Shown: positions 35,904-39,440 of the stretch, one piece after another
Layout of the letters: each line of letters starts with the position of its first letter
Numbering within the stretch: the stretch's first letter is position 1
IMG/VR virus record: IMGVR_UViG_3300010396_000037
DNA: 64,000 nucleotides
Reading direction: 5' to 3' (one strand)
From: a virus
Made by a program: the position numbers and the translations under genes
Notes under the pieces: model-generated
What the model saw: the letters and a program-made list of their open reading frames with translations, nothing else
Told to the model about the DNA's origin: nothing
Databases searched by the model: none

Positions 35904-37085
35904 ATGCGCGTATGTGTACTCTATTGGCCTATCAGTGGTGTGGGTGGTATCTCAACTTTCATGAAGCATATGAAAGCAGTCGCAGATGATCGTGGAGATA
36001 CATTCCATGTTCTCTGTTCGCCAAATCAGAAAGGTAAAGAAGTTGGGTTATTGCCAGAAGCAACTGAAGTGGCTGGTGGTTCATCTAACATCTTGATTGA
36101 TGGATATGTGCCGCATCATCCATCTAACTTCGAGAAGTCCGCTGATTTCATCGCCAAGAATTATGACGTGGTTCTAACAGCCCATTTATGTCCAAGACCT
36201 AACAAGTCTTATGGTGAAGAACCCGTTTTCTTAAATCTTCTGAATGAATTGCATGCAAAAAATGTTAGAATGATTGGATTCATTCATGATGGGTATTGGG
36301 ACACTTACAAGGAGTTCGGCATTCCAACTCTTGAGTTAATGCAGAAAACAATTATTGCGCAGCCAACTTATGCCAAACCAATTCTAACAGAAAAACACTA
36401 TCCAATTGAACCAACTTATCTGGCCATTCATCCACGAATTCTAGAAGCCAATAAACTTGAAGGCGATCAAAGAAATCGTAAGCGCGTTGTCTGGTTGCCA
36501 CAATGGAAGCGCATCAAAGGTACACACCTGATGCTACAAGGACTTCCTGAGGCAGAACAGATAGGATATGATGTACATCTTTATGGATGCGGCATTGATT
36601 ATTACAACGCATGTTTGGAAGATAGCTGGAAGAAGATGATTGGTAAAGATCTATTCCGTCCAGATTGTTCTGGCCAAGGAACAGCAACTTATTTCGGTAC
36701 AAGACCATACAACGAAGTTTCTGTTGCTTTACAACAAGCAACTTTCTCACTAGATTTCCAAGGTCACAGTGCAAAATATAAGACTGCATATGAAACTGGT
36801 TCTTACAATTATACTCATCTTGAAAGTCTATATTGGGGATGCGTACCTGTTGTGCATAAAAATTTCTTGAAGAATGACATACCAGATGATTTGGTTCTTG
36901 CTCTTGACCACCCTGAAATGTGGGCAAACGCCATCAAGAAGTATTGTAGCTTTAATTACCCAACCGAAAAAGCCAGGGAGTATGTATTGGAACATCATTC
37001 TGCTACAAGGCATTATGACCAGACATTTTCAATGGAATGTAAAGAGATTAAGGAAGAAGGTGGTCTTTCGGCATTCTTTGTATGA
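35904..37085 (+). CDS. GT-B fold glycosyltransferase (T4 alpha-glucosyltransferase-like DNA glycosyltransferase candidate)
   Basis: MRVCVL....GVGGI N-terminal loop, FIHD, W..IKG, NYTHLE..YWGCVPV; in the replication operon after gp41. Confidence 0.75.
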   Translation: MRVCVLYWPISGVGGISTFMKHMKAVADDRGDTFHVLCSPNQKGKEVGLLPEATEVAGGSSNILIDGYVPHHPSNFEKSADFIAKNYDVVLTAHLCPRPNKSYGEEPVFLNLLNELHAKNVRMIGFIHDGYWDTYKEFGIPTLELMQKTIIAQPTYAKPILTEKHYPIEPTYLAIHPRILEANKLEGDQRNRKRVVWLPQWKRIKGTHLMLQGLPEAEQIGYDVHLYGCGIDYYNACLEDSWKKMIGKDLFRPDCSGQGTATYFGTRPYNEVSVALQQATFSLDFQGHSAKYKTAYETGSYNYTHLESLYWGCVPVVHKNFLKNDIPDDLVLALDHPEMWANAIKKYCSFNYPTEKAREYVLEHHSATRHYDQTFSMECKEIKEEGGLSAFFV

Positions 37086-37462
37086 ATCGTTGGACTTACA
37101 ATGGTTTTGACTATGATGAATCTAAAGGAGCATTCGGATTCATCTATTTGATTACAAATCTTGAAACAGGCAAAATGTACGTCGGTAAGAAAAGTTTCAA
37201 GAGATGGGATGGAGAAGAGAGCGATTGGAGAACATATCATGGCTCATGTAAGAGTCTGAATGAAGACCTGCGTGAAAAGAACTCTTTGAAGAGAGAGATT
37301 CTCTACATTTGTGAAACTGAAGAAGAAATGGATAAACTGGAAATTGAAGAGCAATTAAAGCGTGATGTTGTGAATGATCCTAGATATTACAATCGCAGAG
37401 TTGGGGATAGATTTCTAGGCATGAAACGTGTGAATGGTAGGCTACAGAAGAAAACAGCATGA
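37082..37462 (+). CDS. Stand-alone GIY-YIG nuclease (EndoII/DenA-like)
   Basis: FGFIY.ITN..TGK.YVGKK, W..Y.GS, REIL, E..E, YYN; 126 aa with no DNA-binding tail. Confidence 0.7.
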   Translation: MNRWTYNGFDYDESKGAFGFIYLITNLETGKMYVGKKSFKRWDGEESDWRTYHGSCKSLNEDLREKNSLKREILYICETEEEMDKLEIEEQLKRDVVNDPRYYNRRVGDRFLGMKRVNGRLQKKTA

Positions 37463-37524
37463 AACGTGTGGTAGATAACACTAAACCAGTGAAGATTGTT
37501 ATAGAGCCTCATGCAGACAATTAG
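37459..37524 (+). pseudogene. Orphaned 5' end of the PIG-L deacetylase gene
   Basis: MKRVVDNTKPVKIVIEPHADN*; ATGA-coupled to upstream gene; ends at the PHxD motif. Confidence 0.7.
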
Positions 37525-37530
37525 AGAAAG

Positions 37531-37538
37531 TATAAATA
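37531..37538 (+). promoter_or_regulatory. Late promoter TATAAATA of the homing endonuclease
   Basis: Perfect T4 late consensus 26 nt before the ATG. Confidence 0.75.
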
Positions 37539-37563
37539 TCTTCAATTGAATAGAGGATATTTT

Positions 37564-38322
37564 ATGAAGGAGTGGATATATAAAGGCGAAGAATTAGCAC
37601 AAGTTCCTGGCAATGCATTTGGATTTATCTATTGCATAACTAATGTTAATTCTGGGCAGAAATATATAGGCCGAAAACAATTTGTCACCCAAAAAGGAGT
37701 AGAAACAAATTGGAAAACTTATTTTGGGTCTAGTATGCATTTGTCTAAAGATGTAGAAAAATTAGGCAAAAAATGTTTTCTTAGGGAAATTATTAGCGTT
37801 CACTCATCTAATTCAGAATTGTGTGAAGCGGAAGTGACGGAACAAGAGAATAGAAATGTTCTGTATGAAATTTTACCCAATGGCGAAAGAGCATATTACA
37901 ACAGATGTATAAAAGGCAAAGAATTTTATATCAATATGTTGGAGAAATGGCAAGACCCAGAGTACAGGAAGCATCAAGAAGAAATGCATAAAGAAACATG
38001 GAAAAATCCAGACTATAGGAAGAGGATGTCTGATGCTCATAAAGGACAAGTCCAATGGAATTTAGGATTAAAAGGAACGCAACCTGTTACAGAAGAATTA
38101 AGAGCAAAGAGAAGAAAGTTATCCAGACAACTGTGGAATGATCCAGTTTATAGAGAAAATTGTTTGAATGCCTGTAAATCAGAGGATCGAAGAAAGAAGT
38201 TGTCTGATGCCCATAAGGGTAAAAAATGGATAACTAATGGCAGCAGAAGCGTTCTGTTTAGAGGAGAAAATCTCCCAGAAGGTTACAGATATGGCAGGAA
38301 ATATTCCCCAAATAGTTTGTGA
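37564..38322 (+). mobile_element. GIY-YIG homing endonuclease with NUMOD3-like repeats
   Basis: FGFIYCITN...GQKYIGRK, YYN; W.(D/N)P.YR x3, (M/L)SDAHKG x2, WITNG, GYRYGR; GAGG SD. Confidence 0.85.
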
Positions 38323-38857
38323 AACCCATGCCGATGATGCCTTTTTGAGTATGGGGCAGCATTTAGAAGATTGGCATAAACAAAGGATTCCTACAGCTAT
38401 TGTTACAGTTTTCAGTGGTACTAGAAAGAGAGCTGTAGATGCACAGAAATACGCAGATGCTGTAGGAGCAAAATGGGAAGGTTGGGGGTTTGTAGAAGGG
38501 GAACCATTACCCAATGATCTTTCTATGTATTTGCAAAATTCAAAAATATCTTTATTTCCTTTCTCGGAAAGTGTTGAATGGTATATAAATCTTGCTCTAA
38601 CACACCCGGAACATAAGAGGGTAAGAGAGTTGCTGGAACCTGCGGCAGCTGGAATGTATGTTGATCAGCCTTATGCTATCACACAAAAGAATGCTCCTAT
38701 TGTAACAGAACTCATGAAAGGAAGAACAGTTCTGAGTTACAAACATCCTGGGAAGCGTAAGTATCGCCACATTCCTCTGTTCAAAGACCAATCAAAGTTC
38801 TTTTATTTCAACAATGAAGAGAAACTTCTTCAGACCTTTGAAATGATCGTCCAATAA
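38291..38857 (+). CDS. PIG-L/LmbE-family N-acetylhexosamine deacetylase
   Basis: E.HADD...S.G, VTVFSG, R.......A..VG, HPEH, Y.DQPY. Confidence 0.75.
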   Translation: MAGNIPQIVCETHADDAFLSMGQHLEDWHKQRIPTAIVTVFSGTRKRAVDAQKYADAVGAKWEGWGFVEGEPLPNDLSMYLQNSKISLFPFSESVEWYINLALTHPEHKRVRELLEPAAAGMYVDQPYAITQKNAPIVTELMKGRTVLSYKHPGKRKYRHIPLFKDQSKFFYFNNEEKLLQTFEMIVQ

Positions 38858-38885
38858 ATAAAATAGTTATTTACATAGAGACAGA

Positions 38886-39440
38886 ATGATGAAGACTTTC
38901 ACTGAATTCTTGGTAGAATCTTCCTTCACCCACGATAGGAAAGAATATGAAAGTCATCCTTTCCTGAAATCTAAAGGACTAACCAGATTGCGCAATGGCG
39001 CAAAAATTGTCGACAGTGATGATGGATCAATCTATCATGATCATTCTTCTAAAAATCCTCATGTAGTATATGCGTTCAAACAAGATGGCGAACATCATGT
39101 GCATGTTTATCCTGGAGATCCTAGATCAACAGAACCCACACATGCTGGAGTCGGCAAAACTCCAACCGAAGCAATGAATAATTTGAAACCTTTCAAACAG
39201 TATGCCAAGAAATATTTAGATGAGTCTGTTCTGAAGGAATTCCATCCAACGCCTGCTGGAAAGGAAGTTCCTGGGGCCGAGAGTGATCAAGGCGCTGAGA
39301 AATATGTCAAACAAGTGAATGGCAAGTGGGCACTGGTTTCACGTCATACTGGTCGTCCATTGAAATATTTTGATAGCAAACCTTCTCGTGAAGAGGCTGG
39401 CAAAGCTCTCCGCACGGTTGAATACTTCAAACACTCTTAA
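38886..39440 (+). CDS. Internal head protein with T4-type capsid-targeting sequence
   Basis: N-terminus MKTFTEFLVE resembles T4 IP CTS MKTYQEFIAE; late box ATAAATA at 38854-38860. Confidence 0.75.
   Translation: MMKTFTEFLVESSFTHDRKEYESHPFLKSKGLTRLRNGAKIVDSDDGSIYHDHSSKNPHVVYAFKQDGEHHVHVYPGDPRSTEPTHAGVGKTPTEAMNNLKPFKQYAKKYLDESVLKEFHPTPAGKEVPGAESDQGAEKYVKQVNGKWALVSRHTGRPLKYFDSKPSREEAGKALRTVEYFKHS

Follow-up and report, generated by a model that had tools for sequence, protein, structure and literature searches.

A 64,000-nucleotide (nt) stretch of IMG/VR virus record IMGVR_UViG_3300010396_000037 (the window) carries an intact, free-standing homing endonuclease gene (HEG) between a 21-codon open reading frame (ORF), here called the stub, and a deacetylase-like gene of the PIG-L/LmbE type that encodes 188 amino acids (aa). 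At this one site the HEG is present or absent between close relatives, together with a flanking foreign tract (38323-38654). Both boundaries of the inserted DNA can be located, and the deacetylase-like gene behind the HEG is complete and of mosaic ancestry. We believe the locus probably preserves the trace of an intronless homing event, driven by a free-standing GIY-YIG endonuclease, in which part of the neighbouring gene was co-converted and the left junction was formed one-sidedly. The phage concerned is an uncultured T4-like myovirus of soil metagenomes (gene order gp43, UvsX, gp41). The nearest match to the region from cultured phages by blastn was to gp41 only, of Pelagibacter phage HTVC008M and cyanophages, and tblastn with the 188-aa protein against 50,697 records of cultured phages gave no match.

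Three HEG-less relatives, one 135-kb contig (L001) and two short contigs (L002 and L003), served for the closest comparison. All three have the order gp41, 393-aa gene, 126-aa GIY-YIG gene and one contiguous deacetylase-like gene of 195 aa, and the window follows the same order with the stub, the HEG and the 188-aa gene added. The product of the contiguous gene, P0002, is the closest family member of the window protein (gene start MKYVIDNTKPVKIVIEPHADD; N-terminus MKYVIDNTKPVKIVIEPHADDAFLSMG). Translation of the stub gave MKRVVDNTKPVKIVIEPHADN, which is identical to the start of the contiguous L001 gene at 18 of 20 aa and at 49 of 60 nt (81.7%), a divergence that matches that of the adjacent 126-aa gene (82.5% nt identity). 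The stub ATG at 37459 overlaps the TGA of the 126-aa gene (ATGA, 37459-37462) just as the ATG of the contiguous gene does in L001-L003, and the stub stops at a TAG at 37522-37524. Judged by these matches, the 21-codon ORF is no chance match but the genuine N-terminus of the PIG-L/LmbE-like gene that was resident here. An earlier reading of this DNA made without database searches (the sequence-only reading) had described a relic here, coupled to the upstream gene and ending at the deacetylase motif, and had predicted that HEG-less relatives would have one contiguous gene beginning with the stub sequence. All the coordinates and peptides that it gave, for the relic and for the rest of the locus, were correct, the left junction does lie at the HAD codons, and L001-L003 have the predicted gene.

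The blastn alignments of the window to the three independent contigs L001, L002 and L003 had identical, sharp end points, 37517 (CATGCAGA) and 38655, between which 1,137 nt in the window replace 326 nt in L001. The HEG is absent from these three relatives and from two further loci, L004 and L008. Codon-level alignment of the 188-aa gene to L001 gave 57.2% nt identity over codons 17-121 and 91.5% over codons 122-188. Ten-codon windows showed the same step, with 40-77% nt identity across codons 11-121, apart from a few peaks of 77-83% at conserved motifs, and 83-100% from the YVDQPY codons to the stop. At the protein level, identity to P0002 was 54% over residues 11-121 and 97% over residues 122-188; the best match of residues 11-121 to any database entry reached 60%. 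The right crossover lies within the conserved YVDQPYAITQKN codons. The IV-x-E-x-HAD codons (9-10 codons) are now duplicated, once in the stub and once in the new gene, and the two copies are identical at 16 of 27 nt. By these identities, the incoming DNA is the HEG with its leader plus two-thirds of the same gene from a divergent allele. The earlier proposal that the HEG rescues its host with a short, built-in recoded 5' end does not fit this picture, as all of the first 121 codons are foreign (57% nt, 54% aa identity). Nor can relic and body be joined into a canonical gene as had been suggested: because the first 121 codons of the body are foreign and the last 67 are resident-type, the stub plus the body does not rebuild the old gene.

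The start of the 188-aa gene at 38291 was also picked by the gene callers on public contigs. A start at ATG 38237 (206-aa ORF) was considered and rejected, with no Shine-Dalgarno sequence, an 86-nt overlap with the HEG and a leader exceeding in length every other in the family. The family comparison set consisted of 82 matched proteins, 32 of which were aligned, and 20 fetched loci. Family members are 170-202 aa long, so the window protein is of normal length. Against the Pfam PIG-L profile (PF02585) the window protein scored 18.5 bits, below the curated cut-off of 28.2, and 31 of the 32 aligned members matched PIG-L at E <= 0.01 (best 1.2e-7). An AlphaFold2 model built from the family alignment (pLDDT 91.9) placed a strand at residues 7-11 (QIVCE) directly before H13-A-D-D16. 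The best Foldseek matches in the PDB were all LmbE/PIG-L deacetylases with the LmbE Rossmann-like fold (Dbv21, Orf2*, BC1534, diacetylchitobiose deacetylase, BshB, MshB and TT1542; E down to 3e-7, probability 1.0). The residues invariant in the 32-sequence alignment (E11, H13, D15, D16 and H108) and the nearly invariant H105 are all present in the window protein, as are the HxDD motif after strand 1 and the later HxxH motif. We take the invariant His and Asp residues to be zinc binders, as is generally held for the family. The earlier assignment of this gene to PIG-L thus stands on fold and motifs and does not stand on the gene's own Pfam score. On the strength of the model, the downstream ORF is a complete, well-folding family member and a predicted deacetylase, whose new N-terminus supplies the beta-strand and the HxDD motif as had been claimed.

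The new N-terminus itself, MAGNIPQIVCETHADD, is by comparison with the family an ordinary start in both length and pattern. Family N-termini have variable leaders of 0-20 residues before [IVL]V-x-E-P-HADD. HEG-less P0007 begins with MNASSPIIVIEPHADD, 16 residues as in the window; HEG-less P0009 begins with MKICVETHADD and has the unusual Thr and the next 19 residues in common with the window (motif ETHADDAFLSMGQHLEDWHKQ); further HEG-less members begin with MSASSILLVEPHADD and MIKIVCEPHADD. The sequence-only reading had counted on HEG-less relatives not starting with MAGNIP-like sequence; leaders of like kind and length in P0007 and P0009 bring that expectation close to failure. In two loci, L006 and L007, an unrelated upstream gene overlaps the family start by 29 nt, over poorly conserved codons, and the 32-nt overlap between the HEG and the deacetylase-like gene is therefore not special.

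The HEG starts at ATG 37564 and ends with TGA at 38320-38322 (the listed 258-aa ORF begins at an upstream TTG). Its GIY-YIG domain matched PF19835 (SegE_GIY-YIG) with 97.5 bits (cut-off 25) over residues 4-116, covering the whole profile, and NUMOD3 matched with 25.8 bits (cut-off 20.4), with W-x-D/N-P-x-Y-R...SDAHKG repeats in residues 125-225. Matches to several homing endonuclease families of PHROG were also obtained. Among 1.84 billion cluster representatives (15 billion proteins) no relative exceeded 50% identity, which makes the HEG a singleton at 50%, and a hunt for the donor by word-based search and exhaustive phmmer, with the HEG as query, recovered distant relatives only, with no more than 45-50% identity on the catalytic domain.

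The HEG leader contains the late-promoter-like box TATAAATA at 37531-37538 and a GAGGA Shine-Dalgarno sequence at 37553-37557. These elements fall in the two arms of a predicted hairpin of 10-13 bp (37534-37543 paired with 37553-37562), in which the 5' arm holds TATAAATA and GAGGA is buried. The folding free energy was -7.9 kcal/mol (z -2.3), and 5 of 200 shuffled sequences folded as well. In T4, the same layout of promoter and hairpin limits translation of I-TevI, SegB and MobE to late transcripts (PMC2988022). Counting in the window showed no enrichment of the late-promoter motifs TATAAATA and ATAAATA, with 2 occurrences of TATAAATA in 64 kb compared to 2.8 expected by chance. The position of TATAAATA was as described earlier, and the weight it can bear is lower than had been stated; as the motif is not enriched in the window, the promoter-in-hairpin layout is at most a hint of T4-like late control. 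A scan of 36900-39000 for sigma-70 promoters and terminators found nothing relevant. The stub TAG is so close to the hairpin (37522-37565) that a ribosome terminating there would come to rest within a few bases of the 5' arm. Stub translation might conceivably influence HEG translation on read-through transcripts.

Table 1. Features of the HEG locus (positions in the window; strand as given)
Feature	Position	Strand	Description
126-aa GIY-YIG-domain-only gene	37082..37462	+	Pfam SegE_GIY-YIG, E 2.3e-23; stop overlaps stub ATG
Stub	37459..37524	+	20 resident codons matching the L001 gene, then Asn and TAG from inserted DNA
Left junction	37516..37521	.	within the Asp codon of HAD; last position homologous to L001-L003 is 37517
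HEG leader	37518..37563	+	46 nt, AT-rich (22% GC); TATAAATA, hairpin and GAGGA
HEG	37564..38322	+	intact, free-standing, 252 aa; SegE-type GIY-YIG (residues 1-116) and NUMOD3 repeats
188-aa deacetylase-like gene	38291..38857	+	ATG 38291, GAAGG 38278-38282, HADD codons 38327-38338
Overlap of HEG and deacetylase-like gene	38291..38322	+	32 nt, different frame; last 10 codons and stop of HEG are first codons MAGNIPQIVC
Foreign 5' two-thirds	38291..38654	+	codons 1-121, own start and ETHADD; no blastn match to L001-L003
Resident-type 3' third	38655..38857	+	codons 122-188; 91.5% nt, 97% aa identity to L001/P0002

These observations can be accommodated in a simple sequence of steps. In a donor phage outside the present samples, the HEG would have directly preceded a divergent PIG-L/LmbE-like gene belonging to the donor itself, and the first 32 nt of that gene would have overlapped the HEG ORF. 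During a mixed infection, the endonuclease would have cut a HEG-less resident allele somewhere in the first ~120 codons, that is, within the replaced 326 nt. At the right end, homologous repair would have resolved in the most conserved stretch, the YVDQPYAITQKN codons, and because the crossover fell there, the donor's first 121 codons would have been copied in with the HEG by co-conversion. At the left end, the DNA upstream of the HEG would have had no partner in the resident, so that this end would have been joined one-sidedly at the HAD codons, the likely route being illegitimate or microhomology repair. This joining would have stranded the first 20 resident codons as a 21-codon stub, still translationally coupled, and the working gene would be a chimera read from ATG 38291, in which the donor's native N-terminus provides beta-1 and the HxDD metal site. 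A cut at the HxDD/HADD codons is plausible; it may lie anywhere in the replaced 326 nt, with possible resection before joining. The tract has the shape expected for co-conversion, with the intact HEG at one edge, the conserved target stretch at the other and resident-type sequence outside both.

T4 endonucleases are known for one-sided homing, which is completed through illegitimate junctions at microhomologies where only one side has homology, and for long co-conversion tracts and late-promoter/hairpin control (PMC2988022). Homing by SegA-G and MobE of the T-even phages (PMC2988022) resembles the window in that a free-standing GIY-YIG gene of a T4-like phage is present or absent between close relatives, stands at the edge of a foreign tract that extends into the neighbouring gene by co-conversion, and has a leader in which a late-promoter-like box lies in a hairpin hiding the ribosome-binding site. 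The window differs in that its left junction is within the target gene, leaving a stub and a diverged 9-10-codon duplicate, whereas the natural Seg/Mob sites described lie between genes and are without such stubs (PMC2988022).

Several points weigh against this account. The layout of the donor is a reconstruction, and no HEG relative above 50% identity turned up to support it; cleavage of the HEG-less allele by the HEG, and the site of that cleavage, are likewise presumed. The same pattern would result from a donor in which a stub was already present. Illegitimate repair in T4 usually follows resection, which makes a junction exactly at a conserved motif mildly surprising, and the position of the junction may point instead to a short homology with a donor stub. 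The arrangement was identical in 9 contigs from at least 3 soil samples; these contigs include the likely source sample, may all stem from one campaign and are not independent events. As all contigs with the arrangement are identical, they amount to one observed event without population variation.

The same soil metagenomes contain, at about half the depth, a related HEG-less phage whose gene begins MIRIVVEP... (compared over window positions 37340-38847, with 452 nt in place of 1,290 in the window). Potential recipients thus co-occur with the HEG-bearing phage. Because the stub homology is flush with the junction, the arrangement should now be a good homing donor for L001-type phages.

The possibility of a donor stub leads to a second explanation, in which the HEG and a cleavage-immune 5' segment would form a dedicated mobile unit that homes into the HxDD codons, the donor already having the stub and both junctions being homologous. 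We consider this, in essence the model of the sequence-only reading, rather unlikely, although it accounts well for a left junction exactly at the most conserved motif, for a carried copy that differs from the target at many positions (16 of 27 nt identical over the duplicated codons), and for the stub, which would be a flush homology arm. The same logic is documented in C-terminal gene hybrids of fungal mitochondria (PMC3630166). Against it, the 82 proteins and 20 loci include one lineage only in which the E[PT]HAD[DN] motif occurs a second time or a HEG is adjacent. A scan of IMG/VR gave 10 deacetylase-family loci, with a HEG or a stub in none of the 10. The singleton status of the HEG in 15 billion proteins likewise gives no sign of spread; these arguments against regular spread are limited by sampling. 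In addition, the import is no minimal recoded patch: its 121 codons come from an ordinary divergent allele and include an N-terminus that is ordinary as well, and the stub is as diverged as its flank to the last base, so that a homologous left crossover would be needed within the final ~8 nt.

The fungal systems deserve a closer comparison. Mitochondrial mORF gene hybrids are described for atp6 of Allomyces macrogynus and for atp6, atp9, cox2 and nad3 of Glomus (PMC3630166). As in the window, an endonuclease gene travels with a foreign gene end, and the native end is displaced and kept behind; the native copy is near the sister genome (82% in the window) and the inserted one far from it (57% in the window). 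The window is the mirror image of these hybrids, with the 5' end replaced instead of the 3' end, and its gene consequently has to have a start codon and a ribosome-binding site that are new, both of which are situated within the final codons of the HEG. The hosts also differ, phage as opposed to organelle, and the window shows one event with no spread: across all searches, the HEG and gene end were found together as one unit in one lineage, which may reflect sampling. It is conceivable, though in our judgement doubtful, that the window holds a phage N-terminal counterpart of the fungal mORF hybrids, a mobile unit of HEG and immune 5' segment that homes into the active-site codons of the deacetylase gene, with start signals inside the HEG's last codons and the stub as its flush arm.

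A third explanation would dispense with the cut and make the HEG a passenger on a foreign patch acquired by ordinary or illegitimate recombination between co-infecting phages. T4-like genomes are mosaic, and the region 5' of the deacetylase-like gene varies (TAGT in L004, DUF4031 in L008), which speaks for this explanation. We nonetheless hold it to be improbable: the patch starts with an intact HEG and ends in the most conserved codons of the target, and HEGs are known to occur at the borders of segments exchanged between phages (PMC10055350; PMC2988022).

Expression across the insertion, by an intron, by translational bypass or as an enzyme in two pieces with the 21-aa peptide complementing the body, is very improbable in spite of the translationally coupled start retained by the stub and the precedent of HEG-split genes that work (Aeh1 nrdA, T4 gene 60/39; PMC2988022), since Rfam, including group I/II introns, gave no match in 36800-39200 at E <= 1, just 46 nt precede the HEG ORF and 4 nt separate the HEG stop from the second HADD (in keeping with the earlier remark that there is no room for an intron), and the full-length body has its own beta-1 and HxDD, which the stub duplicates rather than completes. 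The completeness of the downstream ORF makes all three of these readings unnecessary. Genes in pieces are known with mobE in Aeh1 nrdA, mobA in T4 gene 60/39 and seg43(25) in gene 43 (PMC2988022; PMC3045599). There, as in the window, a free-standing HEG lies inside a conserved, functionally critical coding region of a T4-like phage; the halves of those genes are complementary and must assemble, whereas in the window the upstream piece is redundant beside a complete downstream ORF.

The two genes upstream of the stub accompany the deacetylase-like gene in L001-L003 as well. The 393-aa gene downstream of gp41 (+ strand) is without a Pfam match. The 126-aa GIY-YIG protein is 81-87% identical in aa to its counterparts in L001-L003, L008 and L009 and 36% identical to the catalytic domain of the HEG. 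It is without a DNA-binding module, and its gene is translationally coupled on both sides. This gene looks like one that is kept, perhaps as a nuclease similar to T4 endonuclease II, and not like a decaying HEG. A 14-nt sequence, GCATGAAACGTGTG, is present twice, 38 nt apart (37419-37432 and 37457-37470), near the end of the 126-aa gene and at the stub start, and both copies encode MKRV. L001 carries different bases at both positions. The repeat could be due to chance or to a small conversion.

The upstream neighbour of the deacetylase-like gene differs among the relatives, and the site 5' of this gene is a variable spot. In L004 (L004:4189-5555) the gene of the PIG-L-like family comes after a TAGT glycosyltransferase. 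A DUF4031 gene lies immediately 5' of the deacetylase-like gene in L008 and L009 (L008:3248-3508), and in the window's phage it lies ~2 kb downstream (L005:6375-6635). In unrelated phage types (L006:2405-7408 and L007:2405-6763) the family adjoins HMUDK_hel (a 5-hmdU DNA kinase domain), Nmad5 and a thymidylate-synthase-like gene. Gene context of this kind suggests that the 393-aa gene and the deacetylase of the window (35904-38857) may take part in a pathway of DNA-base sugar hypermodification.

In the literature, we found no phage description of a 5' gene-end replacement with a new translation start inside a nuclease gene. Read as homing with co-conversion, the locus is a clean natural fossil that is consistent with the known homing biology of T4 and calls for no new mechanism. 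Its value is that both boundaries of such an event are readable to the base beside a HEG-less sister genome, and that the L001-type allele and the window allele form a ready substrate pair for the target of a new SegE-like enzyme. On this account, a free-standing endonuclease can replace the 5' two-thirds of the gene for an enzyme next to it, together with the active site, and the resulting chimera still looks functional. Selfish nucleases would thus have a concrete way of shuffling the alleles of auxiliary genes in phages.

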